DNA of 64,000 nucleotides from Candidatus Dojkabacteria bacterium (GTDB taxonomy: Bacteria > Patescibacteriota > Dojkabacteria > GCA-002793355). Positions 1 through 64,000 of the stretch are shown one piece after another; the first letter of the stretch is position 1; every line of letters begins with the position of its first letter. The notes under the pieces were generated by a model. The model was given only the letters and a program-made list of their open reading frames with translations. It was not told where the DNA came from and made no database searches. A program made the translations under genes and the position numbers. Location: the NCBI GenBank assembly GCA_030583825.1, contig CP129477.1, positions 510,308-574,307 on the forward strand, read 5' to 3'.

Positions 1-118
1 ATGCCACAAAAAATAACTTACAGTGCTTTTACATTTGTGTCTTTAGGAAAACCTCTGAAATGAGAGAGGTTACTCTCTTTATTCCCGCAATGCTGCCTTT
101 CTTTTCAGAAAAACACCG

Positions 119-190
119 TTGCGGGACCTGGATTCGAACCAGGAACCTTCAGGTTATGGGCCTGACGAGCTGCCGTTGCTCCATCCCGCT
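119..190 (-). tRNA. tRNA with CAT anticodon (Met/fMet/Ile2-type), 72 nt
   Basis: Minus-strand cloverleaf: acceptor AGCGGGA/TCCCGCA, T-loop TTCGAAT, anticodon stem TCAGG/CCTGA, loop CCCATAA giving CAU. Odd features are C at position 33 and an A1xA72 mismatch. No encoded CCA. The 60..266 '+' ORF overlapping it is spurious. Confidence 0.55.
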
Positions 191-2548: not shown

Positions 2549-2943
2549 TCCTTAGTTAAAGCTTTTTACGACTATAGTGGAACCGCAGTGAGGAAACCCC
2601 AGTAATAAAGATTTAATAAGTTGACGGAACCGAGCAAAAAGATAACTGACGTTATGTTTTTGTGAAGGAGGTTAGAAATAGCAACAATTTGCTATTGTGT
2701 TGCAAGGCCGGGGAGCTGTAATCCTTTTGCAAGGAGTCCTCTGCTAAACATGAGCAGCAAAATCATATTTTACGCGAATACTTTCAGATAGAGATAAGGA
2801 CTTACAACGAAGCCATTGCATTGTTTACTGTAGCCTTACAAATTTCTCTCCTGTTTCACAAAACTCACCCTCGGCAATGTCATATCAAAAGTCCATATTT
2901 CACACATAATTACGGAACGCTTTATGATATAATAACAATTATT

Positions 2944-3020
2944 GGTGAGGTAGCTCAGTTGGTTAGAGCACGGGATTCATAACCCCGAGGTCAGCGGTTC
3001 GATCCTGCTCCTCACCACCA
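2944..3020 (+). tRNA. tRNA-Met (anticodon CAT), 77 nt with encoded CCA
   Basis: Cloverleaf by eye: acceptor GGTGAGG/CCTCACC, D-arm GCTC..GAGC, anticodon loop TTCATAA, T-loop TTCGATC, 3' ACCA. 1:72 is paired (G:C), so it looks like an elongator or Ile2-type rather than a classical initiator. Confidence 0.85.
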
Positions 3021-5082: not shown

Positions 5083-7968
5083 ATGTCAGGAATTCACAAA
5101 GGTCTTTTACTTGCGATTGATGCAAACTCATTATTACACCGAGCATATCACGCGTACCCATTAACGATGGTTACTTCGGATGGAGTACCAGTAAACGCGG
5201 CATTCGGATTTACCTCGATGCTATTAGATACTTTGCTGAAGTATCGTCCAGAATATGTTTTTTGTGCGTTTGATACTCATAAGCCGACGTTTCGTCACAC
5301 AGACTATTTGGGGTACAAAATGAATCGTCCGAAAACCGATTCAGAGCTTGTTGACCAAATTCCTCTCGTTGATAATGTCTTGAATGCGTTGAATATTCCT
5401 ATTTTTCGCGTAGATGGCTACGAAGCAGATGACATTCTTGGGACAGTCGCTGCGAAAGCTGTTGCAGATGTTCATGGCCCCATTTCCAACGCTTTTATTT
5501 TAACTGGTGACCGGGATTTGTATCAGCTGGTTAATGAAAAAGTACAGGTCGTGATGCCAAAAGGATCGTTTAAAAATTTACAGGAATATGGAGAAACGCA
5601 GGTGATTGAATCAATGGGAGTTCCTCCGGTACGGATTACTGACTTGAAAGGACTTATGGGTGATGCATCGGATAATATTCCTGGAGTCAAAGGCATTGGC
5701 CCGAAAACTGCTGCAGATTTGATCACAACATTTGGTTCATTGGAAGAAATTTACCAAAATATTGAAGAGGTGGCTAAAAAGTCAAAAAGAATTGCTGAAA
5801 AACTTGCAGAAGAGCAGGAAGTCGCAGTGCTAAGTAAACAACTTGCAACGATTAAGTTGGATACTCCAGTCACATTTAAGTATGATGCCGCGTTGACGAG
5901 TGATTTTTCATTGCATAAAGCAACTGCGTTATTTACTCAGTATCAGTTTAAGTCATTGCTTCCGCGGCTGAAAAAGTTCGATGATATTGCACCAAAATTG
6001 GATGGTCAGGAACAAACAGAGACAATGGAGGATGTACAAAGTTTAACACTGAAAGAAGAAATGTCTCATTGGATTGGCCAATTGCCGGATGATTTAAGAG
6101 GTGGGGACACACTTGCCGCGCTTGATCGCTTAGACGCGGTCTTACTATCGAGTGAATCACATTCTTTTGAAAATATGTCCGGAAAAGGGCTTGGTGAGCG
6201 TGTAGAATTCCTTGGGAAAATATTGGAAGAACTACAGTCGGATGCATTTTCTCAATTTGTCATTGTGTATTACGGGCGAGCAGTGTACATAACGGATATT
6301 TCAGATGCGAGATTGTCATTAGCAGGAGGAGCAAAAATCATTTTTCATGGATTTTTTAGCTATTGGAACGAATGTGTGACTGGCCCAGAACAATCATCTT
6401 TGGACAAAAAACAACACGAAATCCTGAAAGCGCTGTTTGCTGCAGATGTTTTAGTGGATATTCCTTCTTTAACATATGCAATGGCCGCTGGACGTGGAGA
6501 TTATGATATTTCGCAAGCGGTATTACAGTATGGCATTTTACCTCAACATGTTTCCCAACAGCTTCCAATTATTGCATTGATGCAAGCAGCAAAAGCAACG
6601 GTCGGATTACCAGAATATGTGGGACTTACGCGTATTGTTGAGTTGTGGAAGCAGCGTCCTCAAAGAGGAGATATGACAATTCCTGAGTCGGTACATCTCT
6701 TTTTGGATAAACCTGCACAGTTTGGAGTTGCGCTTATGCACTTGCGCGGTATTGGAATAAATCCAGAACTCGTATTGGAATATGGGCAGTCGTTGGAAAA
6801 AGAAATTGCCACACTAGAAAAGGGCATCTTCGATGACATTGGATTCGAATTTAACATTCGTTCTCCAAAACAGCTGGGAGATATTTTATTCTCTCATTTG
6901 GGATTGCCGTCAAAGAAAAAAACAAAAACAGGCTTTTCTACAGACGATGAGGTCTTGCAAGAGCTTTTACCCGCCCACCCTGCAGTGGAGAAAGTACTCA
7001 AATACCGGCAGCTTTCCAAGCTTCTCAATACATACATTCGTCCTTTTCTCGATCTTGCCCAACGTCACAATGAGGCGACTTCTGGACAGCAATTAACATT
7101 TGGTGCCGGAAATGTCGAAAACAGCTCGGGAAATTTCTTTAGAATTCACTCTGAATTTGATCCAATGTCCACATCTTCGGGGCGCTTGTCGTCGAGCAAT
7201 CCTAACTTACAGAACCTACCGATTAAAACTCTGGAAGGAAAAATGATCCGCAAGTTCTTTGTTCCAGAAGCAGGAAATGTTCTCATTTCGATAGATTATT
7301 CGCAAATTGATCTGCGTGTAATGGCTCATATTTCCGGAGATCCAGGACTTTTGGAGGCATTTACCAAAGAACGAGATGTTCACAGAACAACCGCAGCAAA
7401 GATTTTTGGAGTTGACTACGCAGATGTAAATGACTCACAGCGACGTATTGCAAAAACCGTAAACTTCGGTCTTTTATATGGAATGTCGGCATTCGGATTG
7501 TCCAAGTCTATCGGTGTGTCAGTGAAAGAAGCGGATGCATTTATAAAAGCGTATTTCGAGTCATTTCCAAATGTTCAGAAATATATGGAAGAAACGATTG
7601 ATTTCGCCTCGCAGTATGGGTATGTTCTATCGTTATTGGGTCGCCGAAGATATATGTACGGAATTGATGCGAACAACCAGCAACGACGTCAGGCAGCACA
7701 GCGAGAGGCAATAAACATGCCGATCCAGGGTGGTTCAGATGATATTATGCGTCTGGCACTTGGACAGATATCGCTTATGGATGAAGTCCTCTCCGGCAAA
7801 GTTCGTTTGGTGTTACAGATTCATGACGAGCTTGTGTTTGAAGCTCCAGATGATGAGAAGTTCTTGAAAGAGTTTATTCCAAAACTGACGAATACAATGG
7901 AACATGTGCTTGAATTGGCAGTGCCGTTGAAGGTAGAGTATGCGGTAGGGAAAAACTTGGACATATAA
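5083..7968 (+). CDS. polA: DNA polymerase I
   Basis: N-terminal 5'-3' exonuclease/FEN domain (GDASDNIPGVKGIGPKTA helix-hairpin-helix). Pol A motifs in the C-terminal half: RRQAAQREAINMPIQGGSDDIM and QIHDELVFE. 961 aa. Confidence 0.9.
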   Translation: MSGIHKGLLLAIDANSLLHRAYHAYPLTMVTSDGVPVNAAFGFTSMLLDTLLKYRPEYVFCAFDTHKPTFRHTDYLGYKMNRPKTDSELVDQIPLVDNVLNALNIPIFRVDGYEADDILGTVAAKAVADVHGPISNAFILTGDRDLYQLVNEKVQVVMPKGSFKNLQEYGETQVIESMGVPPVRITDLKGLMGDASDNIPGVKGIGPKTAADLITTFGSLEEIYQNIEEVAKKSKRIAEKLAEEQEVAVLSKQLATIKLDTPVTFKYDAALTSDFSLHKATALFTQYQFKSLLPRLKKFDDIAPKLDGQEQTETMEDVQSLTLKEEMSHWIGQLPDDLRGGDTLAALDRLDAVLLSSESHSFENMSGKGLGERVEFLGKILEELQSDAFSQFVIVYYGRAVYITDISDARLSLAGGAKIIFHGFFSYWNECVTGPEQSSLDKKQHEILKALFAADVLVDIPSLTYAMAAGRGDYDISQAVLQYGILPQHVSQQLPIIALMQAAKATVGLPEYVGLTRIVELWKQRPQRGDMTIPESVHLFLDKPAQFGVALMHLRGIGINPELVLEYGQSLEKEIATLEKGIFDDIGFEFNIRSPKQLGDILFSHLGLPSKKKTKTGFSTDDEVLQELLPAHPAVEKVLKYRQLSKLLNTYIRPFLDLAQRHNEATSGQQLTFGAGNVENSSGNFFRIHSEFDPMSTSSGRLSSSNPNLQNLPIKTLEGKMIRKFFVPEAGNVLISIDYSQIDLRVMAHISGDPGLLEAFTKERDVHRTTAAKIFGVDYADVNDSQRRIAKTVNFGLLYGMSAFGLSKSIGVSVKEADAFIKAYFESFPNVQKYMEETIDFASQYGYVLSLLGRRRYMYGIDANNQQRRQAAQREAINMPIQGGSDDIMRLALGQISLMDEVLSGKVRLVLQIHDELVFEAPDDEKFLKEFIPKLTNTMEHVLELAVPLKVEYAVGKNLDI

Positions 7969-7970
7969 AT

Positions 7971-8050
7971 ACGTCGCTCGATTTCCTCTCGAATCCGCAA
8001 ATATTGCTTAACGCTGCTTTGCAGCTACAAAATCTGCGGGATCTCGCCTC
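7971..8050 (+). repeat. intergenic repeat copy 1 (core CTCGAATCCGCAAATATTGCT...)
   Basis: Immediately after the polA stop codon. About 60 nt are near-identical to the reverse complement of 37781..37845, and the first ~22 nt match 30204..30224. Confidence 0.6.
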
Positions 8051-8125
8051 AATCTCGCTCCGTTTTACATTAACCATGTGAGAGTTTTTCACTGCGGTTC
8101 CAAGATTGTCCGATTAAACGATTAA

Positions 8126-9157
8126 ATGATACAATCTTTCATGAGAATTTTATCAGGGATCCAGCCGACTGGAACGCTACATATCGGAAACTATTTAGGC
8201 TCTGTGAAGCAATGGTCGGATATGTTGAATGATTCTCCTGAAATTGAGGCATTTTTGATGGTTGTTGACCTTCACGCAATTACAGTTCCACAAGATCCTG
8301 CAGTCCTTCGACGTAAAATTTACGAGCTTCTCGCTATTTATTTGGCCGCAGGTTTTAATCCTGAGAAAGATAACATCTTTGTGCAGTCACAGAATCCGGA
8401 TCACCCATATCTTGGGTGGATCTTTAACTGTATTACGCCGTTCGGGTGGATGGAGCGCATGACTCAGTACAAAGACAAAAAACAGAAGATGGAAGAGTAT
8501 CAAAATATCGTATCTGTCGGACTTTTCGACTATCCAGCCTTGATGGCAGCTGATATTTTGCTCTATGACCCTGATATGGTACCTGTTGGAGCTGATCAAA
8601 AGCAGCACGTAGAATTGACTCGCGATATTGCCGAGAGGTTTAACAATATTTATGGAGAAACATTCAAAGTACCGGAATTCAGAACAAATAAAGAAACGAC
8701 AAATATTCTCGACTTGCAAAATCCGGACAAGAAAATGAGTAAATCAGATGCTAGTGCTGCCGGAAGAATTGATTTAATGGATACCCCCCAGGGTATTCAA
8801 GATAAGCTAAAACGGGCAGTTACAGATAGTGACAATCATGTTGCATACGATCCAGAAAAGAAGCCAGGAGTATCGAACTTATTAGCTATTTTCAGTAGTG
8901 CAACCGGCAAAACAGTAGAAGAACTTGCTCAGGCATATGATGGCAAAGGGTATGGACAGTTTAAGTCAGATATTGCTGACGCAGTCGTTGCTTTCCTTTC
9001 ACCACTGCAGGAAAAAATAAATACCTATTTATCTGACCTTGAACAATTGGACAGAATAGTCAATAATGGAAATGAACGAGCGCGAGAATTGTCGTCACAG
9101 AAAATTGCGCTTGTCGCAGATAAAATGGGTTTATATCACGATGGCAAGAAAATCTAA
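8126..9157 (+). CDS. trpS: tryptophan--tRNA ligase
   Basis: Class I HIGH-type motif (GIQPTGTLHIGNYLG) and KMSKS (KMSKSD). GADQKQH motif typical of TrpRS. Confidence 0.9.
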   Translation: MIQSFMRILSGIQPTGTLHIGNYLGSVKQWSDMLNDSPEIEAFLMVVDLHAITVPQDPAVLRRKIYELLAIYLAAGFNPEKDNIFVQSQNPDHPYLGWIFNCITPFGWMERMTQYKDKKQKMEEYQNIVSVGLFDYPALMAADILLYDPDMVPVGADQKQHVELTRDIAERFNNIYGETFKVPEFRTNKETTNILDLQNPDKKMSKSDASAAGRIDLMDTPQGIQDKLKRAVTDSDNHVAYDPEKKPGVSNLLAIFSSATGKTVEELAQAYDGKGYGQFKSDIADAVVAFLSPLQEKINTYLSDLEQLDRIVNNGNERARELSSQKIALVADKMGLYHDGKKI

Positions 9158-10557: not shown

Positions 10558-10631
10558 TTGCTGCAAATTTATCACGGTGTATTGGCGCGAAAAGCGTAGA
10601 GTGTTATAATTAGCCCTGAAGAGCGCAACAT

Positions 10632-10705
10632 GGGCCCGTAGCTCAGCTGGCTAGAGCGTTCGCATGGCATGCGAGAGGTCGCGGGTTCGAAACCCGCCGG
10701 GTCCA
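10632..10705 (+). tRNA. tRNA-Ala (anticodon GGC), 74 nt, no encoded CCA
   Basis: Acceptor GGGCCCG/CGGGTCC with a G3:U70 wobble (the Ala identity element). Anticodon loop ATGGCAT, T-loop TTCGAAA, discriminator A. Confidence 0.9.
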
Positions 10706-52920: not shown

Positions 52921-54655
52921 AGATATGTTTCACAAATTAATTAAAAATAAGCAAACGTGGAAAAAGTGTTTATATCTTTTAGGGGTAGTAGCTTTCTTAT
53001 GTTTCACACTTTCTCAAGATATAACAGTAAAAGCAGACTCATTTTTTCCTTCAGGAGATGCACGGTATTGTTTACTAGTTCCTACTGTAGGGTTTTACTT
53101 ACAAAGTACACCTATTCCGGAGTTTTTAGAGTATGATGGCGATAAAGTCACGGGATATTCATATAGTTGGGTAACTTCGCATGGAATTACAGATGTCGCT
53201 GATATTCGAGCTGGGCACTTACATAGATTCAGAGACATTGCCAGCTATGTTGCTGGGCCACCAGGAACTCAAATAGGTGTTGCCGCTTGGTTTTACAATG
53301 GAAGTGGACACTCAGTTGATATTTCTGAGTCTCGACTATATCTTTCCTCTCCCGAAAGTGGAGATCTCACAAGAAATACAACAGTTCTTCCTCAAAGTGG
53401 AGTAACTCAAACACTATATTTTGGGAATCAGTTTTCTCGGACAGGGGCATATACAACATTTCCTGTGCCAAGAATTCCTTCGTACTCAGGAAGTCATCCT
53501 CCAGGAATGAAAATTGGTACTCTCACTATAAAACAGCCTGTAGTGATAGGCTCTGTCGTTGCAGCCTGTTACCCAACAAACGATGGACAAATAATTATGG
53601 AGAAAAATATTATGGTTAGAAATGATTCCATGTACTCATTACAAAATGTCCAAGTAGGAAATCAGTCTATTGAACTTGCTCCGCGTCAAATATCTGTAGT
53701 GACAATTACTGAAACTCAACCTCAAAATGCATCAAATACGTATGTGGGGAGTACGGTAAAGGTGTCTGACCAAAATGAACACCTCGAATGTGCAGCAACG
53801 GCTGCCGCAGATGGCGATGCTCTTATAGCTTCGGCGAGACCATTTTTTGTAAACAGAAATGATTCAGCAGACCTGAGTTGGTTTCGATTTCAACCTGCAC
53901 CTGCAGCAGAAGGCGGAGGTGTTACTCTCTGTGTGAGGCAGATTGGTTATACACAGGAGACTATTGCGCCAAGCTGCTCATTTGAGCTCAAACAGGAGAT
54001 ATCCGTAGAGGAGACTAACTTTTGTGAGCAGGGTGGTAAGGGGGCTCGCATATCTATAAAGATCCATAATACGGGAGGTTTCAGTGATAAATCATTCATT
54101 TTTCTGCGAATTAGAAAAGAGCATAGCCATAAAATAGCCAAAGTAGTGGGCTACTCAGAACGGGAGGAAGATAATTCTTGGATAGTTTATAAAGCAGAAA
54201 TTCCGTCAATAACTCACGGTGAAAGTAGGTCGCACATATTTACTATTGAATGGAGCGAACTAGCAGAAGACAATACTCCCATTTCAGTTCTTTATAAAGA
54301 GCAGGAAATAGAAAAAATAATTACAGTTGAAAAATGCGTACTGTCTCAGACTCCGGGGAATATAACAAGCATTAGCCACGCACCTATACCAATAACTGTT
54401 AGCCAGGAAGAATCACTCTGGAATAAAACTAAAAATGAAAACTTTTTTGTGTTATCAAAATTGGCGAATGCAGGGATTTCGTTTGAGCTGGAGAATTCCT
54501 ACTTATTTGGAGCAGTCATTGCAATAATTTCTTGCCTTATTTTTAGAATTGTTTCAAAAGGATATGTGAGAGGGCGATTTAAAAAGACAGAAGAGAGTAT
54601 TTCTTTTTCGCCTGCAGATAATGGACAACAAAGTATTGTCTCGATTGAAAATTGA
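52913..54655 (+). CDS. hypothetical secreted/membrane-anchored protein (N-terminal signal, C-terminal TM)
   Basis: 580-aa ORF overlapping the ComEC-like stop by 8 nt (operonic). N-terminal hydrophobic segment and a C-terminal TM (FGAVIAIISCLIFRIV). No recognised domain. Confidence 0.5.
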   Translation: MSRDMFHKLIKNKQTWKKCLYLLGVVAFLCFTLSQDITVKADSFFPSGDARYCLLVPTVGFYLQSTPIPEFLEYDGDKVTGYSYSWVTSHGITDVADIRAGHLHRFRDIASYVAGPPGTQIGVAAWFYNGSGHSVDISESRLYLSSPESGDLTRNTTVLPQSGVTQTLYFGNQFSRTGAYTTFPVPRIPSYSGSHPPGMKIGTLTIKQPVVIGSVVAACYPTNDGQIIMEKNIMVRNDSMYSLQNVQVGNQSIELAPRQISVVTITETQPQNASNTYVGSTVKVSDQNEHLECAATAAADGDALIASARPFFVNRNDSADLSWFRFQPAPAAEGGGVTLCVRQIGYTQETIAPSCSFELKQEISVEETNFCEQGGKGARISIKIHNTGGFSDKSFIFLRIRKEHSHKIAKVVGYSEREEDNSWIVYKAEIPSITHGESRSHIFTIEWSELAEDNTPISVLYKEQEIEKIITVEKCVLSQTPGNITSISHAPIPITVSQEESLWNKTKNENFFVLSKLANAGISFELENSYLFGAVIAIISCLIFRIVSKGYVRGRFKKTEESISFSPADNGQQSIVSIEN

Positions 54656-56223
54656 TGCTCGAGTGTGGTTGGAATAAACAGAGAATCAAATGCGCGGGAC
54701 AAAATAAATTTATTTTTCTTTAATCCGATGACTGACTGATAAAACATATCTTTTACAATTTGGTTGCTGAGGCTGTCGAGAATTTTCTTAGGAATTCGAG
54801 CAATGTGAAACCTATGAATCTTTTTTACAGCAAGAATTGCAGGGTGTGTGTTGCCTAACTTTTCCGGTATTTGGTTTAGAGTTGAAGCAAGAGAGAGAGC
54901 GTCGTTAATGAAAAATCTACTTTCGGTAGAAATTGGAACTGAGAGTATAGGAAATCCAGAGCAATAGGCATTAAGATATTGTGAAACAACTATTGCGGCG
55001 TAAGTTGCGTAAAAAAGCTGAGAGTCTTTCGATAAATGGTGAATAGTAGGCATTTCAACCACTTTTTGTGGCAGATTAAACGTTGGAAGGCTTGCCTTTG
55101 GTGATTCAATAACACGGATATCTTTGCCAAAATATTTTTTAAATACTTTTGCCATTGCATTCGATACGTCCCAAAAGCTCTTTTCTGTTTTTAAAGCAGA
55201 GTCACCTATTTGTGTAACAGCAATTCCTTCACCATTTCTTCCATTGCTGTGTGAATTGTAGTAGGCAAGATTGTATTTTTCATGTTTCACACTGCCGATA
55301 GATTCAAGCAGTTGTAACTTCTTTTCGAGAGAGTGTGCGATATGCTCCAAATACTCTTTCCAGTGAAGAGGAAGCTCCTGAGAATGTGTTTCATATACTT
55401 TGCGAAGTATGCTTTTATTCAGAGAGATCGCGGAAGCAATTTTCTTACTATCATATGAAAAGCGAGGAATGTAGTTGCCGTGTTTTTCTGTCCATTTCTC
55501 AAGTTCGCTTTCAAGGTTTACCGGCTGTTCCAGTTTCTCAATTGAAAGTACTGACTCATCTTCAGTAAATTTTTTAAGCTCACGGTACAGTGGCAATAAC
55601 TTTTCATTGTGAATATTCGTGTAAGAAGTTTCTAAATTGGGGTTAAGCTTTTCAAAAAAGAGAGCATCCTGTGTTTGCTGACCTTTCTTCACAAGAAAAT
55701 GCTTTTGCCTACCGATGAATCGAAATCCAGTTCGAAAGTTCAATTTGATAGTAGGGGTATTTTCTTCGTAGGTGCGTCCGTAAATCTTTAAAAATCCAAA
55801 TGATGAAAATAAAAAGTCGAAGAAAGCATCGTAACAGGCAGTAGAGTATCCTTTCCCTCGAAATTCAGACTTATTCAAAATAGCAACAGAAAGATAAGCA
55901 CTCATATTGCTCCAGTCAATAAGCTTTATTTTTACATAGCCGATGTAGGTCTTCTTGCGGTTTTCTGTCAACGTAAGTATGTAGGTAATTTCCTTAATCT
56001 TTTCGCCATACATGCTCTCAATTGCTTTTGTGAATGCTTCTGGCTGTACAATGCGTGGCGTACGAAATAAAGTTTTTTGGATATCTGAGTCGTTGAGAAT
56101 AATGAGCAATCCTTCCGCATGCGTTTTCGAGAGAGGTTCTAGCGTTAAGGCTTTAACCTTCGTTTTTAGTTTTGGAAAGACGGGCATATTTGTTCTCGAT
56201 ATAGGAAATAATCTCTCCGGCAA
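54499..56223 (-). CDS. GNAT acetyltransferase-like N-terminal domain fused to ~370-aa uncharacterised C-terminal domain (last gene of ATP-grasp operon)
   Basis: N-terminal ~190 aa are RimL/RimJ-like GNAT (YIGYVKIKLIDWSNMSAYLSVAILNKSEFRGKGYSTACYDAFFDFLFS). The C-terminal domain is unrecognised. The start could be the internal ATG at 56187. The 3' end overlaps convergent gene 52913..54655 by 157 nt. Confidence 0.55.
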   Translation of the reverse strand: MPERLFPISRTNMPVFPKLKTKVKALTLEPLSKTHAEGLLIILNDSDIQKTLFRTPRIVQPEAFTKAIESMYGEKIKEITYILTLTENRKKTYIGYVKIKLIDWSNMSAYLSVAILNKSEFRGKGYSTACYDAFFDFLFSSFGFLKIYGRTYEENTPTIKLNFRTGFRFIGRQKHFLVKKGQQTQDALFFEKLNPNLETSYTNIHNEKLLPLYRELKKFTEDESVLSIEKLEQPVNLESELEKWTEKHGNYIPRFSYDSKKIASAISLNKSILRKVYETHSQELPLHWKEYLEHIAHSLEKKLQLLESIGSVKHEKYNLAYYNSHSNGRNGEGIAVTQIGDSALKTEKSFWDVSNAMAKVFKKYFGKDIRVIESPKASLPTFNLPQKVVEMPTIHHLSKDSQLFYATYAAIVVSQYLNAYCSGFPILSVPISTESRFFINDALSLASTLNQIPEKLGNTHPAILAVKKIHRFHIARIPKKILDSLSNQIVKDMFYQSVIGLKKNKFILSRAFDSLFIPTTLEHQFSIETILCCPLSAGEKEILSSVFLNRPLTYPFETILKIRQEIIAMTAPNK

Positions 56224-57187
56224 CGTTTACTCCAGTTGCTGCTTCGAACCCCTTAAACTGTGGAGCACGGTTTGCTTCAATAATGACGGGGCCTTTTGAA
56301 GGCATCATAATGTCAACGCCGATAATTTCTGACTTCTGCAATTTCACGACATCAACGGCCATTTTCTTTATTTCCTCTGAAATCTCGACTGGATATGCAT
56401 CTGCACCTTGAGCGACATTTCCTTTCCACTGGCCAGTTTGAGGTTCTCGTCGCATTGCTCCAAGAACTTTATCGCCGACAACAAATACGCGGATATCACC
56501 TCTGTAGTCAATAACCTCTTGAAACATACACTCTTTGACTTTATGACCTTCGTATCGGAAGAATTCTTCAATTTCTTGTAGTGACGAAAACTTGAATACA
56601 CCTTTTCCTTTTGAACTTTCCGTTACCTTTACAATAATTGGGTACGAAAGGTGTGACAACATCTGCCTCATCATCGGAAGAGACACGACTGCGAACGATT
56701 TTGGATAGGGAAATCCAGTGCTAGAGGCTTTGTAGAAAGTTCCCAGCTTTGTCTTGTAGTACATCTCTGTGCCAATTTTTTCATCAACGACAATTTTGTC
56801 ATGCTTGAGCATGTAATTTGCAATAATCGTCGCCCACTCGAGAGTTTTGGCAATTTCACGGAAGATAATAACGTCAAAATAGCGTAAATCATACATTCCA
56901 GATACGACAGTTTCTTTCTTGCCAAGAAGAGAAGAAGTCACCTTTTTAGGAGATAATGATTCATCAGGAATAATTTTAATAGTTTGCACACCTTCAAAGT
57001 TTGCAGGATCGCTCATCTGTTCGTCTTTTGTCGGTGGGGTAAAGTACACACCAAATTGCGAGAAAAAGTTCGTTATAACGATATTTTTCTTTGAGAGATA
57101 GACAATCTCGTGGCCATTTTTTAACCCTTCAACAACGATTCTATCTGCTTCGTAATATGGCTTTAATCCAATAACTGCGATTTTCAT
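56153..57187 (-). CDS. RimK-type ATP-grasp ligase (alpha-L-glutamate ligase family)
   Basis: RimK-like N-terminus (MKIAVIGLKP..GHEIVYL). ATP-grasp core: IIVKVTESSKGKGVFKF, DIRVFVVGDKVLGAMRRE..GQWKGNVAQGA, IIGVDIMMPSKGPVIIEANRAPQFKGFEAATGVNVAGEII. Confidence 0.75.
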   Translation of the reverse strand: MKIAVIGLKPYYEADRIVVEGLKNGHEIVYLSKKNIVITNFFSQFGVYFTPPTKDEQMSDPANFEGVQTIKIIPDESLSPKKVTSSLLGKKETVVSGMYDLRYFDVIIFREIAKTLEWATIIANYMLKHDKIVVDEKIGTEMYYKTKLGTFYKASSTGFPYPKSFAVVSLPMMRQMLSHLSYPIIVKVTESSKGKGVFKFSSLQEIEEFFRYEGHKVKECMFQEVIDYRGDIRVFVVGDKVLGAMRREPQTGQWKGNVAQGADAYPVEISEEIKKMAVDVVKLQKSEIIGVDIMMPSKGPVIIEANRAPQFKGFEAATGVNVAGEIISYIENKYARLSKTKNEG

Positions 57188-57208
57188 GTATAAAGTATAC
57201 CTTAAATC

Positions 57209-58123
57209 TTAGCTAATATGTTCTGCGTACAGCTTGTTGATGTATTCCACAAAAAGTTTTGGAATATCAATGCCATGAGCTGTCATAAAGCCTTCAAATC
57301 CTGGAGTTCTGTTAACTTCAAGAAGGTATGGCTTGTTATCTTTCGTGTAAACAATATCAACGCCGCCAAATTGTGCTTCAGTTGCAACGCATGCTCGTGC
57401 AGCAAGGTCTCTCATTTCATCGGTAAGCTCAACAGGCTTAACACTGCCTCCAAGCGAAAAATTTGCCCTGAATTCTCCTTTCTTAGGAATTCTTTGCATT
57501 GCTCCTACTACTTGCTCTGCAACGACTAAAATGCGGTAATCTGCTTTCAAATCAAGCATCTGTTGAATATAGTAGCGTCCAACTGCCTTATCTTCGTTCA
57601 AATCTGCAAGTTTATTCTCGAGGTCTAAACGGTCATTCATTTTAAAAATGCTTGATCCTTTGCCTGCGGCTTTATGCTTTAATAAAAGCGGGTATCCAAT
57701 TTCTTTCTCGATAGTTGGGAGCATTTTCATGTATAAGGTGAATGTCGGAGCGTAAAATGTCTTTGGAAATGGTAATGCTGCTTGTGCGAGTTTTTGCCCA
57801 TCAACAATTTTATTCATAGTGTGGCGAATAACCGACAAATTGTTGTCAATGACCATCTTACCTTTGTTTCGCATATACGTAATGATGTTGATAGAGTATT
57901 TTGCGTAGAGAAAGACTTCTCGAACGAGCATAACATCGTATTGATCGAGGCTTCCTTTTGAGATATGAATAAAGTGGTCTCCATCTTGATCGAACACTGC
58001 ATGAATATCTTCAACTGCGAGTAAATCAACGTGCCATCCATCCTTTTTAAATGCACGAACTAATGATTGCGGCTCAAACTTTTCTTCAAAGGCCCGCTGA
58101 ATTAAAATTGCTAATTTTTTCAT
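57209..58123 (-). CDS. RimK-type ATP-grasp ligase (second paralog)
   Basis: ATP-grasp core: PLLLKHKAAGKGSSIF, YRILVVAEQVVGAMQRIPKKGEFRANFSLGG, FGGVDIVYTKDNKPYLLEVNRTPGFEGFMTAHGIDI. Confidence 0.75.
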   Translation of the reverse strand: MKKLAILIQRAFEEKFEPQSLVRAFKKDGWHVDLLAVEDIHAVFDQDGDHFIHISKGSLDQYDVMLVREVFLYAKYSINIITYMRNKGKMVIDNNLSVIRHTMNKIVDGQKLAQAALPFPKTFYAPTFTLYMKMLPTIEKEIGYPLLLKHKAAGKGSSIFKMNDRLDLENKLADLNEDKAVGRYYIQQMLDLKADYRILVVAEQVVGAMQRIPKKGEFRANFSLGGSVKPVELTDEMRDLAARACVATEAQFGGVDIVYTKDNKPYLLEVNRTPGFEGFMTAHGIDIPKLFVEYINKLYAEHIS

Positions 58124-58161
58124 TTTTGTTGACTAGATTAAGTTATCTCTTAGTATTTCCG

Positions 58162-59676
58162 TTAACGCATCGTAAACGTTTTTGACGGGTCAATAAGGAA
58201 TTCTTTTAAGTCTTTTCGCCCAAGAATAACGGGGTAAATCATTGCTGAACGATTGCTGACCGTAAGAATATATGTTTTTTTTATTCCGCCGAGTGCGATA
58301 TTTGCACGGATAATCGGTCGGATTGTGATTCCATTTCCAGAGCGAACAACAATAAAAGAGCTGATATAATCAAATTCCGAAAGTCTTGCTTTGTATGGTT
58401 CCATTGCTTCGTGTGCTGCGGCACTTGTTTTATACGTTTTGTCAAAAAGTTCCTGTACTTTTTCGAGTTCTTTGTATCCAAGCTGAATTGCCAAACGATA
58501 GTCAATCGAAGATTTTCGTGCGCCTGTGTCAATCTTTGCTTTAATAACTTCTGTCGGGATTTTTACCTGTTTCTTTCTTTTAGTACTCGATTTGAGTGCT
58601 GCTAATGCTTCTATTACCTCATCAACAGGGGTAATTGTGACAGTCTCTACTAAGCCGATAATCTCTTTACCGGTAATACTTTCGACTTGCTCTTCAATTT
58701 CACCACCAAAAAGATTCTTAGCAATCATTATTGCCTTTGCTACTGATTTCTTCTTTAGCCGACGTACCTGATTGATTCTCTCTAGGAGACCTTCTTGATT
58801 TGCTAACTGAATAGCTAAACCAGGTCTTGCGTTAAGTTCCAGGATTAATGGGCCTTTCTCTGCATCAATAGCGATATCAACGCCCAAAAAACCGAGCTTT
58901 GAATGCTGTTGGCACTTTGCTGTGAGTTCAAGAATTTTATCCCAGAAGGGGATTTTAATTCCCTGGAGGGGGATTTTAGGACTGTCTAATGTTTCTTCAA
59001 TCTCATTATACTGATCTCCGATCATATCAAAGCCTTTTCGGTGAATTGCAGTTGTTGTAACTCCACTTGCAATGTCAATTCCAACACCGATTCCTCCGGC
59101 ATGAAGGTTCGCTGTACCTTTAGACTCTTTTGTAGGAAGTCGTAACTCGGCCATAATTGGGATAGAATTGTATGCAATAACGCGAATATCCGGAATACCA
59201 CGGTATGAAAATGGCTTTAGTGTTTTATGGTTTACAATACGCTCTTCAAAAAAGGCAACATCAGCTTTTCCATCAATTGAGAACTTACCGTCAATAATAT
59301 CTGCTAAATGCTGTTTTATATCGTTTACAGACATACTCTCCATGTTAGGCATAATCCATTCTAATTTGCCCTTTTTCTGACCGTAAAACACTATAATACC
59401 TGCGCCGTGAGTTCCACGGTTAGGCTTAATGACAAAGCTTTTTGGCAAAGAGCTCCAGTTGATATACTCGATTTGCTCCTTTGTTCGGATAATTTTGAAT
59501 AACTCAGGGGTTTTAATTCTATATTTTGCAAGAAGCTTTTTACTTAAAAGTTTGTCATCTGCGTACTTTTTATACTTGCGTGGATTGAGCTTACGCATAA
59601 TAAGCCTGTTGCGGTGATTCAATCCAAGGATCTTGGTATTGGAATCGAAAATGTGGTGAAATGGCAGCCCGAACAT
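58162..59676 (-). CDS. ATP-grasp ligase (alpha-L-glutamate-ligase-related, TIGR02291-like) fused to C-terminal retropepsin-like 'Zn_protease' (RimB-like) domain
   Basis: N-terminus ILGLNHRNRLIMRKLNPRKYKKYADDKLLSKKL...FVIKPNRGTHGAGIIVF and ATP-grasp core (LILELNARPGLAIQLAN). The C-terminal ~150 aa carry KIDTGARKSSID...ILGRKDL, typical of the retropepsin-like domain found with RimK systems. Confidence 0.65.
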   Translation of the reverse strand: MFGLPFHHIFDSNTKILGLNHRNRLIMRKLNPRKYKKYADDKLLSKKLLAKYRIKTPELFKIIRTKEQIEYINWSSLPKSFVIKPNRGTHGAGIIVFYGQKKGKLEWIMPNMESMSVNDIKQHLADIIDGKFSIDGKADVAFFEERIVNHKTLKPFSYRGIPDIRVIAYNSIPIMAELRLPTKESKGTANLHAGGIGVGIDIASGVTTTAIHRKGFDMIGDQYNEIEETLDSPKIPLQGIKIPFWDKILELTAKCQQHSKLGFLGVDIAIDAEKGPLILELNARPGLAIQLANQEGLLERINQVRRLKKKSVAKAIMIAKNLFGGEIEEQVESITGKEIIGLVETVTITPVDEVIEALAALKSSTKRKKQVKIPTEVIKAKIDTGARKSSIDYRLAIQLGYKELEKVQELFDKTYKTSAAAHEAMEPYKARLSEFDYISSFIVVRSGNGITIRPIIRANIALGGIKKTYILTVSNRSAMIYPVILGRKDLKEFLIDPSKTFTMR

Positions 59677-59678
59677 AT

Positions 59679-60320
59679 TTAGTTTTTGAGAATTGACTTA
59701 AAGCGGAGAATCTCGGTAATTCTAATATTGCTCCATGTTGCGATAAGAATATTTGCCAAAAGCACTGCGATAAGAATTTCCTGATGGTTAACAAGTACGT
59801 TATTCCACCATTCCCAAACTAAAATGCTTCCACAAACAAGCCCTAATACGAAAGTTGTAACAATTCTACGCAGAAATTCCTGAGAATCCTTTTTAAATTG
59901 AAGCGTTGCAAGATCATCAATGGTTGTTCCAATAAGGAATGCTCCAATCATAATCATTGTTTTGCTAAAAAGAGGGATACCGGTAACCCAAGAAAGCACA
60001 GGAACAAGTGCGAATAGAAGTACGGTTCCGCCGAGATAAATGAATGCAATCCGTCCGTAGTAATTGATATTACGTTTTCTTATAGCGTAACGGGTAAGAA
60101 TAGCACCACCAATAACTGCGATAACAAACGATGCCCAGACGAATAATGTTACCCAAAATGAGCGAGTTGTTTCGTATATAAGATAGAAGGCGAGTGCGAG
60201 AGTAACTGCTGTATAGTTTCGCCATGTTTTGAATCCTATAATGTATCGTGTTGCTGCAATAATTGTAACGATAACTGGAAGATTCAGAATAATGGGAGCT
60301 ATGTCTTGGATGATAACCAT
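59679..60320 (-). CDS. 7-TM integral membrane protein (7TM module resembling the TM part of 7TM-transglutaminase proteins associated with ATP-grasp peptide ligases)
   Basis: 213 aa with seven predicted TM helices. No transglutaminase domain. Stop is 2 nt before the ATG of the ATP-grasp/protease gene (tight operon). Confidence 0.5.
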   Translation of the reverse strand: MVIIQDIAPIILNLPVIVTIIAATRYIIGFKTWRNYTAVTLALAFYLIYETTRSFWVTLFVWASFVIAVIGGAILTRYAIRKRNINYYGRIAFIYLGGTVLLFALVPVLSWVTGIPLFSKTMIMIGAFLIGTTIDDLATLQFKKDSQEFLRRIVTTFVLGLVCGSILVWEWWNNVLVNHQEILIAVLLANILIATWSNIRITEILRFKSILKN

Positions 60321-60343
60321 CTAAACCTATCTAAATTTAACAA

Positions 60344-60355
60344 GTTATTATACCA
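60344..60355 (-). promoter_or_regulatory. extended -10 (TGGTATAAT, minus strand) candidate promoter of the ATP-grasp operon
   Basis: Reverse complement of 60344..60355 reads TGGTATAATAAC, about 25 nt upstream of the 7TM gene ATG at 60320. Confidence 0.3.
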
Positions 60356-60493
60356 TTTTTAGTCAAATGCAACAATATTTAAGGGGGATTATTTAAAAGG
60401 AAAGGAGGAATATGTATGACCTATATATAATTCTATAGGTCTTTTGGGGGTATTGTTCTCTGGTGCATGATTTTTTGATATAATGCATTCGAT

Positions 60494-60566
60494 GCGCTCG
60501 TAGCTCAATGGATAGAGCAACTGCCTTCTAAGCAGTAGGTTGTGAGTTCGAGTCTCGCCGAGTGCA
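60494..60566 (+). tRNA. tRNA-Arg (anticodon TCT), 73 nt, with G3:U70 and A73
   Basis: Acceptor GCGCTCG/CGAGTGC (third pair G:U), D-arm GCTC-AATGGATA-GAGC, anticodon stem ACTGC/GCAGT with loop CTTCTAA, T-arm GTGAG-TTCGAGT-CTCGC. Preceded by TATAAT at 60477..60482. Confidence 0.8.
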
Positions 60567-60613
60567 AAGGTGAATTTTTCCTACGGAGTAGGAAGGGTTC
60601 ACCTTTTCTATTT
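60567..60613 (+). terminator. rho-independent terminator after tRNA-Arg (stem AAGGTGAA/TTCACCTT, then TTCTATTTT)
   Basis: An 8-bp stem encloses an inner mini-hairpin (TCCTAC/GTAGGA), followed by a T-rich tract. A second small hairpin with a T-run (GCAAGTGACCTTGCGTTTTT) lies at about 60634..60653. Confidence 0.5.
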
Positions 60614-60957
60614 TATGAGAGATTCGAAGCCTGAGGAAAAAGGCAAGTGACCTTGCGTTTTTCTGAATGGATGGGATGAAAAGCAATAATTTGCTTTTCG
60701 AGAGATAAAGTTTACTTTATCGGTTTTCAATGAAAACAAAGTAACCTTATCGAGGAAGTAACTCTCTCAGTGGCAACTAATTTACAACATTTGTTTTCCT
60801 TACTGTAAATTACTAGTCTTCGCTCAATCTAAAATATGCGCAAAAGCAGTTTATTATTGAGGTATCCAATTCGCGGTTGTTAATGCCTGTTCTTGAAAAT
60901 TAGACATTCCACGGGGTCGCAACAATAGAATTCTTCTTGCAGACAAAAACTTTACTG

Positions 60958-62061
60958 CTAATCAATAACTGGATAGCCACGTTTTGCGGACAAAAGTCTC
61001 TGATATATATAAGGGCCCGCGTAGGTGAAAATATTTTTCTTAAAATCAATTGGTGGTAGATACTCAACAAGCTCTGAGCTAAATCCTCTCTTAAATAGGT
61101 CGAGGCTTTCCCATGGATGTTTCATCTTCCTTTCAAGAATGTTTTTGGAAATAGCTCCTCCCCAGAGGTCGAGAATTTCGATATCTCCGGACTGTTGCAG
61201 GTCGGTAATGATGTGGTACAGGTTTACGTGTGAAGCATTCATTCTTTTTCCTCGCTGTGAAGTTGCCGCATGATAGTAATATGCCCGATTTCGGAATAAA
61301 ATGACTTGCGCAATTGTCAGCGGTTCTCCCTCAAAGTGGGTGACATATTGTCGTAACATGCCAGCTTTCTGGTATTCTTCAAGCTCTTGAGTGATATAGT
61401 CGTTGGGGAGAGGAGTAAAGCCTTTTGTACGTTCCATCTCGTTATAAAAAGAGAGAAATGTACTAAAGCTGACTGGTTCGGCCTCTACGGTAGTTTTTAT
61501 ACCTGCTTTAATGCCCTGTGTTACGCAGTGTCTGGAAGTCTTTCTGATTTTCATCAAATCAAACTCTTTGATATTGATAATATGGGTTACGCATGCGTCA
61601 ATTTCCTGCGTTGGGGCGCGGTTATACCCGAGCTGATAAATTCCTTTTAACAGTTCTGGGTCTTTTTGTATTCGTGGAGTCAATCGTGCAAATGCGGCAC
61701 CATGTTTTTGTAGTTGTTCTTTTATGAATGGGCCGAGAAGTTCAAAGGTTCGAAGTACTTTTTCTGGTTTTTGAGTCTTTATAGGCAAAGGAGTATGCTG
61801 AAAATAGATCATTTTTCCGCTTTGTGCCGGAATCAGCTGGTAGTGCAATAAGCCGCTCGGTTTGCCTTTTTCTTCTATCGCGAAAAAGAATAACTCTCTG
61901 CCGCGTCGGCGTAAGAACGAGAATCTTGCTGCCGAATTATAAAAAGTAAAATTTTCTGTCTGCTGTAACAGGTCATGATATTGGGCTTCCGTGATCTCTG
62001 TTATCTGCAGTGGTCTGTTTGCCATGCTTGTGAATTTTATCATATCAGAGGTTTTCTTCAC
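60958..62061 (-). CDS. FemAB/FemX-family (aminoacyl-tRNA-dependent) peptidyltransferase-like protein
   Basis: Similarity by eye to FemX-type motifs: ILDLWGGAIS (compare FemX LYDLGGI) and RAYYYHAATS (compare IWYMYAGS). The ~370-aa two-lobed GNAT-like length fits. Not confirmed by search. Confidence 0.55.
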   Translation of the reverse strand: MKKTSDMIKFTSMANRPLQITEITEAQYHDLLQQTENFTFYNSAARFSFLRRRGRELFFFAIEEKGKPSGLLHYQLIPAQSGKMIYFQHTPLPIKTQKPEKVLRTFELLGPFIKEQLQKHGAAFARLTPRIQKDPELLKGIYQLGYNRAPTQEIDACVTHIINIKEFDLMKIRKTSRHCVTQGIKAGIKTTVEAEPVSFSTFLSFYNEMERTKGFTPLPNDYITQELEEYQKAGMLRQYVTHFEGEPLTIAQVILFRNRAYYYHAATSQRGKRMNASHVNLYHIITDLQQSGDIEILDLWGGAISKNILERKMKHPWESLDLFKRGFSSELVEYLPPIDFKKNIFTYAGPYIYQRLLSAKRGYPVID

Positions 62062-62101
62062 ACTGAATTAGTTTTCTTTACAACTATACTATAATGTTTT
62101 C

Positions 62102-63712
62102 ATGATAAGTTTCGAGGCGCGTGGAACGGTAGTTGAAAAAGAACTTTCCCCAGAGCAAGATGGTGAGAAGAGAGTTTTCACTGTTGTTGGTATAGAATCG
62201 CATAATCCAGATAGAGAGTTGCCGCAGAATGTGAAAGATTTAGGACAACAAAAGAACCTTTTTCGTGTTGAGCAGGAAGATAAAGATCAGATTTTAGGAT
62301 TTGTGGAAAAAAGAATAGAAGCGATGAATGCGCATGACCCATCTTTGATTGAGAGATTTCCTGGATTTCTTGATGAAGCTTCTGAGCCGAAACCAACACT
62401 CGCAGAGATATTGGCTATGTCGCAGCAAATAATGCTGAGATATACTGGACAACATGTAGAAGGTATCGGTAAACCTAATAATTTGAGAGATCTTTTTGGT
62501 GAAAGTGCAAATTCCAGAGAAAGGCCTCAAATAAAATGTAACTTGTTTAGCAGTGCCTATATTCATGTTTTCAATACTCTTTGTGAACAGTATCATCCCG
62601 AAATCCTTGATTATTATGTACTTATGCCTGTAAATGCTGAAGCTGCGTTAGATGTTGCGCATGAAAGAGGGGTCAGGAGTCATACTGCGGGGTTTAGACG
62701 AATGCTTCCACACGGCTATCTCAATTTAGTAAGTATGCATGGGAGAAATGTTGATATAACGCCTATTGACCCTTATTGGGTAGCTCGTGGAGAAGGAGAC
62801 TATATGACTCCAGAAAATATTAAAAGTTTTGATAGAACAAGGTTTCGCCGTATTGATGCAATGCTTGCAATGGTTAATACTCCAGACCCTGTCGTACTAC
62901 ATGAAATGATATTAGAAGATGCTGAGGGAGAACAACTGCCTGAAAATAATTTATCTCATGCTTTATACTTGCAATCGGTTGTAGAGTTAAGAATTAATAA
63001 GCCTTATTACGATACATTACATCATGCCGAAGTTACGAATGATTCGTGGGATTTGAATATTAAAATATACGATGAGGCTATTTCCGAAATCGATCGAAAA
63101 GACGGTGGAGGCTCGAGCTCTTTGCGAAGAGCTGCATTAGTTGAAGCAAAGACTGCGGCTGAAAATGATATAGCTAAGGCAAATGTAGCGCACAATGAAT
63201 GGAGCAGGTTAAGACAGGTATATTTAAATCACAGAGATGCCTTGGCATTACGGGCACTTGAGCAAATGCAGGAAATAGAACCCTCAGATATGGAGTTATT
63301 TCTCCTCTTTAATGTGGAACATTCAATTTCGGATTATGGGGCGATTGTTGATCCAAGGCTCTATGATCAAGCAAAAAATATTATGAAAGAAGTGATAGAT
63401 TCCGGCAGAAAGCTGAATCTATCTTCTGAGGTTGGATATAGAATGGCAATGAGGGCAACCCGAGATGAATTCGTTATCCCGCAATATAAAGATCCTGATT
63501 TAGTCGTGGCTTCATATGAATTGCGTTTAATGGAGTGCATTTTCTATTCCCAGTCGGGAGTGAATAGGTGGATGGAACAACTTCCCCAGGCGGCATCACT
63601 TCCTCTCTCGCAACAAGCGACATATCGAAAATTTTTAGATAACCTTATTGTGGAATTAGCAGAGAGAAATCTTGATGTACAGAAGATTGAATATCTTCGA
63701 AATAAACTATAA
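62102..63712 (+). CDS. hypothetical protein
   Basis: 536-aa ORF, acidic and soluble, no TM. No recognised motif. Confidence 0.5.
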   Translation: MISFEARGTVVEKELSPEQDGEKRVFTVVGIESHNPDRELPQNVKDLGQQKNLFRVEQEDKDQILGFVEKRIEAMNAHDPSLIERFPGFLDEASEPKPTLAEILAMSQQIMLRYTGQHVEGIGKPNNLRDLFGESANSRERPQIKCNLFSSAYIHVFNTLCEQYHPEILDYYVLMPVNAEAALDVAHERGVRSHTAGFRRMLPHGYLNLVSMHGRNVDITPIDPYWVARGEGDYMTPENIKSFDRTRFRRIDAMLAMVNTPDPVVLHEMILEDAEGEQLPENNLSHALYLQSVVELRINKPYYDTLHHAEVTNDSWDLNIKIYDEAISEIDRKDGGGSSSLRRAALVEAKTAAENDIAKANVAHNEWSRLRQVYLNHRDALALRALEQMQEIEPSDMELFLLFNVEHSISDYGAIVDPRLYDQAKNIMKEVIDSGRKLNLSSEVGYRMAMRATRDEFVIPQYKDPDLVVASYELRLMECIFYSQSGVNRWMEQLPQAASLPLSQQATYRKFLDNLIVELAERNLDVQKIEYLRNKL

Positions 63713-63753
63713 AAAGCGATTCTATCCTATAGAAAAGTTTGTTATAATATTGT

Positions 63754-64000
63754 ATGAATGAATTGCGTATTATTTCTCCCATCGGAGAAACAGTAGAACA
63801 AGGTAAACCTCAAGAAATCTCTCACCAATTAACTGCTCACGTGCGTCCACGATATATTCAGACTGGCTTTAATCCAGACGATGGTGTATTTGAAAAGACA
63901 GAGCGTATTGTTCCCGATTATTCATTGCCGGCAGGTATTAAAGAAGATGTGCGGAACAGTAGGCAAACAGATGTAGAAACATTTCCTCCGTTGGAAGCAG
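63754..64000 (+). CDS. hypothetical protein (5' partial within window)
   Basis: ATG at 63754 opens a reading frame (MNELRIISPIGETVEQGKPQEISHQL...) that runs to the window end. Confidence 0.3.
   Translation, partial: MNELRIISPIGETVEQGKPQEISHQLTAHVRPRYIQTGFNPDDGVFEKTERIVPDYSLPAGIKEDVRNSRQTDVETFPPLEA

Follow-up and report, generated by a model that had tools for sequence, protein, structure and literature searches.

The wobble pair G3:U70 of the acceptor stem is the textbook identity mark that acts independently of the anticodon, and the compensatory evolution of a stem normally passes through G:U. The closest described cases in which this pair entered a non-Ala tRNA by a C70-to-U change are the C70U suppressors of yeast tRNA-Pro(UGG) and the G3:U70 variants of human tRNA-Pro, tRNA-Cys, tRNA-Thr, and tRNA-Gly (PMC5389508, PMC11415595), which are laboratory-selected or rare alleles amid redundant copies. 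In bacteria, a conflict between acceptor identity and anticodon occurs naturally in tRNA-ProX of Streptomyces, which is encoded by extra conserved genes and served by a dedicated synthetase, ProRSx (PMC11415595). In Staphylococcus, a tRNA and a Fem-family transferase are linked in one organism through the non-proteogenic tRNA-Gly species that act as donors for FmhB, FemA, and FemB; these cell-wall tRNA-Gly, as described in S. aureus, are extra paralogues that bind elongation factor Tu (EF-Tu) weakly (PMC7826273, PMC3239215). Here, we analyzed a stretch of 64,000 nucleotides from a Candidatus Dojkabacteria bacterium (GenBank assembly GCA_030583825.1, contig CP129477.1, positions 510,308 to 574,307; hereafter the window), in which a tRNA-Arg(UCU) gene with G3:U70 lies between a FemX-like gene and an ATP-grasp operon. 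With the bacterial tRNA-Arg(UCU) of the argU type it shares the cloverleaf, the UCU anticodon, A20, C35, U36, A73, the GGAUA motif of the D-loop and a standard T-arm, and it differs in that its pair 3:70 is G:U and not of the Watson-Crick type. In contrast to the yeast and human variants, which follow the same C70-to-U route, G3:U70 would here be the consensus allele, in a gene that is probably the sole copy, with the mischarging predicted; unlike tRNA-ProX, this is a housekeeping copy with no dedicated synthetase nearby and no conservation of its special feature; and, unlike the staphylococcal donors, it is the orthologue of a decoding tRNA, with a normal T-stem and a special pair that is not conserved. 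We consider it likely that it is an ordinary elongator tRNA-Arg(UCU) with one C70-to-U change, whose neighbors were inherited by synteny and whose effect on AGA codons would be, at most, occasional Arg-to-Ala substitution.

The Rfam model RF00005 matched the gene end to end (model positions 1-71) with 71.6 bits, the second-highest score among the seven tRNAs of the window, and flagged no non-canonical pairs, while ARAGORN called the isotype as tRNA-Arg(tct). In standard numbering, the acceptor stem pairs as G1:C72, C2:G71, G3:U70, C4:G69, U5:A68, C6:G67, and G7:C66 and is directly followed by U8 and A9. The D-loop AAUGGAUA supplies G18, G19, and A20, the anticodon loop CUUCUAA contains the anticodon U34 C35 U36, and both G18G19 and the T-loop UUCGAGU are intact; U8 and the seven pairs of the acceptor stem complete the hallmarks of a canonical cloverleaf. 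The key positions fall at 60496 (G3), 60512 (A20), 60527..60529 (anticodon), 60563 (U70), and 60566 (A73). The ARAGORN drawing adds a U(-1):A(74) pair, which gives eight acceptor pairs and places the G:U fourth; we rejected the resulting 4:69 assignment, since the tRNA-Ala at 10631 is drawn likewise and the Infernal register is 3:70. Every detail of this tRNA in the earlier note on this DNA (the UCU anticodon, A20, A73, and a G:U at 3:70) was therefore borne out by the Infernal register and by ARAGORN, with a clean fold in which the G:U stays at 3:70.

The bacterial Arg identity set consists of A20, C35, U/G36, and A/G73 (PMC9976931) and is complete in this tRNA, which has A20, C35, U36, and A73. 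The bacterial Ala set comprises A73, G2-C71, G3.U70, G4-C69, and G20 (PMC9976931); from it, the tRNA carries G3.U70 (60496/60563) and A73 (60566) and lacks G2-C71, G4-C69, and G20, in whose place it has C2:G71, C4:G69, and A20. G4-C69 and G20 are minor Ala elements in E. coli. Moreover, the genome's own tRNA-Ala(GGC), which carries G3:U70 and A73 as had been noted before, has C4:G69 and C20, so G4-C69 and G20 cannot be required in this host. When pairs 1:72 to 4:69 and position 73 are compared, the tRNA-Arg(UCU) departs from this tRNA-Ala only at 2:71 (C:G versus G:C).

We then compared the locus with its counterparts in related genomes. The order Fem-like gene, tRNA-Arg(UCU), and ATP-grasp operon headed by the gene of a 7TM_transglut membrane protein (7TM protein) is the same in every relative with a long enough contig; in L001-L007, L011, L137, and L139, the tRNA is flanked by the Fem-like gene and the 7TM operon, with one or two additional genes between the Fem-like gene and the tRNA, next to the latter, in L001 and L011. 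The earlier note had allowed that all relatives might share the G:U pair together with normal Arg charging. This is not what we found, as the relatives have G3:C70 or A3:U70 and none has G3:U70 (Table 1). In the sister species (L137, L139/L140), whose 7TM proteins are 81-82% identical to that of the window, the pair is G3:C70. In an alignment of eight orthologous tRNA sequences, pair 3:70 is GC in four, AU in three, and GU in one; all 21 cloverleaf pairs are standard pairs in all eight orthologues (100% of cells paired), and eight pairs covary on both sides. By this alignment, the tRNA is a functional cloverleaf under constraint that evolves by compensatory change. The window and sister tRNAs are the same at 70 of 73 nt (96%), against about 23% of substitutions in the flanks. 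Two of the three differing bases turn the U28:A42 of the sister into the compensated pair C28:G42, and the third is C70 to U, on one side only. Relatives have G:U states elsewhere in this tRNA, too, as at pair 28:42 of L001, which is U:G. The pattern points to G3:U70 as a single, derived, recent, and uncompensated C70-to-U transition and not as a conserved design: an ancestral G3:C70 would have become G3:U70, the G:U state between the A:U and G:C seen in relatives.

The sister contigs L137 (~2578..2602, minus strand) and L139 (~142..164, minus strand) carry, some 190 nt downstream of the tRNA-Arg(UCU), a second, partial tRNA 3′ end, CGAGTCTCGCCGAGCGCAAAA, which resembles the scar of an element integrated into the 3′ end of a tRNA. 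We considered whether U70 had been imported by an integrating element and found this unsupported, as the partial copy is missing from the window (corresponding site ~60700).

The gene is preceded by an extended −10 promoter-like motif and directly followed by an intrinsic-terminator-like hairpin (Table 1). The block at the promoter-like motif, TTTTTGATATAATGC, is invariant in the sister-species contigs L137 and L139, and the hairpin is retained in both, with changes in both arms. A two-hexamer consensus scan did not find a −35/−10 pair, and we infer from the sequence that TGaTATAAT would be the tRNA promoter. With these signals, the tRNA appears to form its own transcription unit. As for the demand on it, AGA accounts for 183 of the 858 Arg codons of the window (21%) and for about 1% of all codons, and it is present in 42 of the 44 open reading frames (ORFs), including those of FtsH, PolA (DNA polymerase I), and LeuRS. 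Given this heavy use, the tRNA-Arg(UCU) is needed for translation. It is the only tRNA-Arg gene in the window and, considering the synteny and the small size of the genome (~1.09 Mb), probably its sole tRNA-Arg(UCU) copy. We also looked at the abundance of GCA as a sign of an odd Ala-rich gene and rejected it, as GCA is the preferred Ala codon across all 44 ORFs. The earlier note had called for a check of the EF-Tu determinants, and this turned out as expected of an elongator: with the T-stem increments for EF-Tu affinity in Table 2 of PMC3239215, the pairs G49:C65, U50:G64, and G51:C63 give a calculated −0.4 + 0.4 + 0 = 0 kcal/mol relative to yeast tRNA-Phe, for which normal affinity is predicted. 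The T-stem is identical in the relatives without G3:U70.

A different role had also been proposed for this tRNA, that of a dedicated, non-proteinogenic Ala donor for the adjacent FemX-like transferase. Consistent with this proposal, some 390 nt separate the tRNA from a FemX-fold gene, and the tRNA bears G3:U70 and A73. The product of this gene, WKZ29709.1, is named 'GNAT family N-acetyltransferase' by NCBI; an exact look-up matched its 355-aa form and gave no match for the 367-aa product of the maximal ORF. It matches Pfam PF13480 (Acetyltransf_6) with E = 8e-9 and, weakly, NCBIfam FemX (NF047883), with E = 1.3e-6 and 28 bits where the cut-off is 500, has no match to PF02388 (FemAB) at E <= 0.01, and has homologues with faint PF02388 matches. 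A single-sequence search against PDB sequences returned no match, and a profile of the nine-member family matched Weissella viridescens FemX (1NE9) over residues 110-288 with E = 1.6e-8. We obtained an AlphaFold (AF2) model with a predicted local distance difference test score (pLDDT) of 90 and a predicted template modeling score (pTM) of 0.89. With this model, the top Foldseek matches were FemX, S. aureus FemX, FemA, and the Sbb17/Sba18 aminoacyl-tRNA-dependent peptide synthases (template modeling (TM) scores of 0.6-0.7, E about 1e-16), and next came the MprF-type aminoacyl-lipid synthases and other tandem GNATs. Compared with W. viridescens FemX (PDB 1NE9, 4II9) and the FemABX proteins, the neighbor thus has the same double-GNAT fold (TM scores of 0.66-0.72, E about 1e-16) but is only 15-17% identical, falls far under the NCBIfam cut-off, and matches PF13480 instead of PF02388. 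The FemX-like assignment consequently stands at the level of fold and superfamily, as the model and the profile agree, and does not reach the curated cut-offs (28 versus 500 bits; none for PF02388). The catalytic lysine of FemX is Lys305 (PMC12945691), and the lysine of a D-x-F-K-x-G motif that is invariant in nine homologues (D309, F311, K312, and G314 in the 355-aa numbering) may correspond to it; the sequence alignment with FemX ends at 288-291. On the model, we regard the protein as a putative aminoacyl-tRNA-dependent transferase, for which the use of an aminoacyl-tRNA is plausible. The family is small, with 8 homologues of the Fem-like protein, and 13 of the 7TM protein, in 5.8 billion proteins. 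Contig L006 has two tandem Fem-like paralogues, 6064..7128 (P0007) and 7191..8255 (P0004), recalling the FemA/FemB duplication, and the most distant homologue (L012 10001..11713), of 35% identity, has genes for MreB and glycosyltransferases in its vicinity and a tRNA-Lys(CUU), not a tRNA-Arg, after it.

All of this speaks to the neighbor; its coupling to the tRNA is unsupported. The Fem-like gene adjoins the tRNA also where the latter has G3:C70 or A3:U70, so the neighborhood is inherited synteny and independent of G3:U70, and in L001 and L011 the two are even separated by other genes. The tRNA keeps the complete Arg identity set, is the syntenic orthologue of a decoding tRNA, with G18G19 and the T-loop intact and a T-stem predicted to be normal, and its UCU anticodon reads a heavily used codon, so that such a donor would mistranslate. 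It also has a promoter-like motif and a terminator-like hairpin to itself, both conserved in the sister species. Furthermore, the one FemX whose tRNA recognition has been studied, that of W. viridescens, can do without G3:U70, depends mainly on G2-C71, and disfavors the tRNA-Gly acceptor arm (PMC2175331, PMC2655667). Our tRNA has C2-G71, which is a bacterial tRNA-Gly identity element (PMC9976931). A private Ala donor is thus very improbable, and on the reading that we favor, that of an ordinary elongator, the FemX-fold gene and the ATP-grasp operon would adjoin the tRNA through a gene order received from a common ancestor and not through use of the tRNA.

We next asked how common G3:U70 is outside tRNA-Ala. 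An anticodon-arm sequence scan of species-representative genomes gave, among the matches listed, 116 cellular tRNA-Arg(UCU) genes from many phyla, in which pair 3:70 is U:A in 50, G:C in 34, C:G in 17, A:U in 11, U:G in 2, and a mismatch in 2; G3:U70 was found in none of the 116. Likewise, among 218 unique tRNAs from the fetched loci, the pair is present in 4 of 4 tRNA-Ala and in 0 of 213 other non-Ala tRNAs, the remaining case being the tRNA-Arg of the window. By these counts, the G3:U70 of the window exceeds what would be expected by chance. In a viral-contig sample of 112 unique tRNA-Arg(UCU) genes, collected with a wider search pattern, we found it in three (L224, L228, and L249, from IMG/VR); a fourth match was discarded as a register error. 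The stem of L228, within an Arg-His-Leu tRNA cluster, is almost that of the window, and the other two have G3:U70 in tandem with U2:G71 (Table 1). In these collections, then, G3:U70 in tRNA-Arg(UCU) appears rare and sporadic and not unique. A different wobble pair, G2:U71, is very common in tRNA-Arg(UCU), with 59 of 116 genes among the matches listed (L013..L132), in stems of the GGUCCCG/CGGGAUC type such as that of the Bacteroidota L060, and a G:U one step from the Ala position is evidently tolerated in bacteria.

A real dual identity, as the earlier note had also suggested, would mean that a substantial share of this tRNA receives Ala from AlaRS and that AGA stands for Arg or Ala across the proteome, be it by drift in a small-genome symbiont or as a tolerated or useful statistical proteome. 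Ala identity is dominated by A73 and G3:U70. In yeast tRNA-Pro(UGG), C70U alone suffices for Pro-to-Ala mistranslation (PMC5389508), G3:U70 moved into tRNA-Tyr or tRNA-Phe gives alanine acceptance (PMC9976931), and AlaRS editing leaves Ala on the wrong tRNA (PMC8583063). The likeness to the genome's own tRNA-Ala, 2:71 excepted, points the same way, as does a weak depletion of AGA relative to the sister species, and the strain, with identical flanks in at least four sequencing runs, is a viable population. On the other side, G2-C71, a part of the bacterial Ala set (PMC9976931), is inverted here, the complete Arg identity set means that ArgRS competes, even the sister species lacks the pair, and the mischarging is predicted from a U70 that rests on one assembly. 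We consider a dual identity of this extent unlikely, although of interest. The suggested risk of AGA-to-Ala ambiguity is plausible, with the difference that the pair would stem from a single recent C70-to-U change and not from a conserved design. For an ordinary elongator tRNA-Arg(UCU), we would expect ArgRS still to charge the tRNA, while AlaRS may charge a fraction of it because of A73 and G3:U70, with at most low-level Arg-to-Ala substitution at AGA as the result. To our knowledge, ArgRS has no editing domain. Some mis-alanylation is plausible by analogy, and its extent depends on the penalty at 2:71 and on the competition by ArgRS.

Several observations weigh against the ordinary-elongator reading. 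In five genes shared with the sister species L137 (56670..62025), AGA makes up 20 of 75 Arg codons (27%) in the window and 31 of 71 (44%) in the sister (Fisher p = 0.04), and at aligned Arg sites, CGN of the window stands opposite AGA of the sister in 14 cases, against 4 cases of the converse (p = 0.03). The G+C content at third codon positions (GC3) is equal in this comparison (0.363 in the window and 0.356 in the sister), and TTA is not depleted. The sample is small, and the direction of the change in AGA is unpolarised, as L001 has 18 AGA in 85 Arg codons (21%) in the same comparison; the depletion is a weak hint that would fit a real cost. Moreover, given 0 of 116 cellular genes among the matches listed, the fixation of G3:U70 in a tRNA reading about 1% of codons is not trivially neutral. 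Finally, U70 (60563) is seen in one assembly, and 60531..60697 (167 nt) is uncovered by independent contigs.

This last point bears on whether U70 is real. Logan contigs from DRR779146, SRR29109021, SRR24948962, and DRR859392 show 0 mismatches over 56679..60530 and 60698..64000 (~7.1 kb), so the assembly around the locus is reliable apart from the uncovered 167 nt. The contigs of the species, from five runs and two strains, all end at ~60509-60530 on the left and exactly at 60698 on the right. The left break falls within the tRNA because the 31-mer there is common to many bacterial tRNA-Arg(UCU) genes. No repeat accounting for the break at 60698 was found in the window, and this break may reflect a structural polymorphism adjoining the tRNA. 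A scan of metagenome contigs with a pattern ending in GCCGAGYGCA returned only the sister-type contig L140, with C70, and a scan of viral contigs with the tRNA 3′ end and trailer returned nothing. A spurious 52-aa ORF over the 3′ half of the tRNA (60528..60686, minus strand), in which the codon ACT or GCT would report U70 or C70, respectively, gave empty results in the look-up and in the homology search. Alternatively, the T at 60563 could be a minority allele or an error of the assembly or consensus, and the true pair would then be G3:C70, as in the sister. In favor of this, the T is a one-base departure from the sister, strong purifying selection acts on this position elsewhere, the stretch is the sole one without independent contigs, and the graph breaks on either side could hide a variant bubble. 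Yet the rest of the locus indicates a very low per-base error rate, the left break is accounted for by the shared 31-mer, and true substitutions between window and sister exist both in the flanks and in the tRNA. We therefore judge an error at this base improbable.

Table 1. Features of the tRNA-Arg(UCU) locus and 3:70 pairs of related tRNAs. Coordinates of the rows without a contig label are those of the window.
Feature	Location	Strand	Remarks
tRNA-Arg(UCU) gene	60494..60566	+	73 nt, CCA not encoded; Rfam RF00005, ARAGORN
Position 70	60563..60563	+	T here, C in nearest relatives; creates G3:U70
TGaTATAAT, extended −10 promoter-like motif	60476..60484	+	Read from sequence; ends 9 nt before tRNA 5′ end
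Intrinsic-terminator-like hairpin and T-run	60566..60616	+	19 pairs; directly 3′ of tRNA
tRNA-Ala(GGC), comparator	10632..10705	+	G1:C72, G2:C71, G3:U70, C4:G69, A73, C20
FemX-fold tandem-GNAT protein, WKZ29709.1	60958..62025	−	355 aa from conserved ATG; maximal ORF to 62061
7TM_transglut membrane protein, WKZ29708.1	59679..60320	−	First gene of ATP-grasp operon, other side of tRNA
ATPgrasp_ST (alpha-L-glutamate-ligase-like) ligase fused to RimB/retropepsin-like peptidase	58162..59676	−	
RimK-like ATP-grasp ligases, two	57209..58123 and 56153..57187	−	
GNAT-fusion protein	54499..56223	−	574 aa
Acceptor stem, window			GCGCUCG/CGAGUGC; 3:70 = G:U; this genome
Acceptor stem, L137, L139/L140			GCGCUCG/CGAGCGC; 3:70 = G:C; sister species, 77% DNA identity
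Acceptor stem, L011			GCACCGG/CCGGUGC; 3:70 = A:U; more distant
Acceptor stem, L001-L005			GCACCCG/CGGGUGC; 3:70 = A:U; more distant
Acceptor stem, L006, L007			GUGCCCG/CGGGCGC; 3:70 = G:C, with U2:G71; more distant
Acceptor stem, L028			GUACCCG/CGGGUAC; 3:70 = A:U; another Dojkabacteria genome
Viral-contig tRNA-Arg(UCU), L228	L228 1134..1207		GCGCCCG/CGGGUGC, G73, CCA encoded; within Arg-His-Leu tRNA cluster; stem almost as window's
Viral-contig tRNA-Arg(UCU), L224 and L249	L224 9888..9960; L249 7107..7180		Both with tandem U2:G71/G3:U70

On the other side of the tRNA lies the ATP-grasp operon, where it had been placed before, a five-gene unit on the minus strand (54499..60320) that is also found in L001, L006, and L137. 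By family assignment, its ligases are ATP-dependent and not tRNA-dependent, and the operon gave weak NCBIfam matches to the RloA/RloB osmotic-stress system. Divergent from the Fem-like gene, a 536-aa protein without a Pfam or NCBIfam match is encoded at 62102..63712 on the plus strand; in the strain of SRR23814899 (L009), which is 95-99% identical, a different gene, of 400 aa, stands beside the Fem-like gene. Elsewhere in the window, a tyrosine recombinase (Phage_integrase, 1667..2548) lies between two tRNA-Met(CAU) genes (118..190 and 2944..3020), one of which encodes CCA, and could be XerC/D or part of a small integrated element.

The phenomenon is known, and the locus offers a new natural case of it; the hypothesis of a private Ala donor can be set aside. 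The G:U intermediate of stem evolution should be forbidden at 3:70, and this lineage seems to occupy it, with a tRNA for a common codon in a tiny genome that probably has no spare copy. If U70 is real, the locus would be a natural test of how strongly 2:71 and the competition by the cognate synthetase shield non-Ala tRNAs, and a gauge of the mistranslation tolerated by a reduced-genome bacterium. The most far-reaching version, which we think rather unlikely, is that G3:U70 has become fixed in the sole tRNA-Arg(UCU) of a free-living population of a bacterium of the Candidate Phyla Radiation (CPR, Patescibacteria), with AlaRS and ArgRS competing for it, so that every AGA would specify a mixture of Arg and Ala and the genome itself would encode a proteome-wide mistranslation. 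If this were true, the lineage would have been caught at the G:U intermediate at the sole acceptor position where a G:U alters identity.

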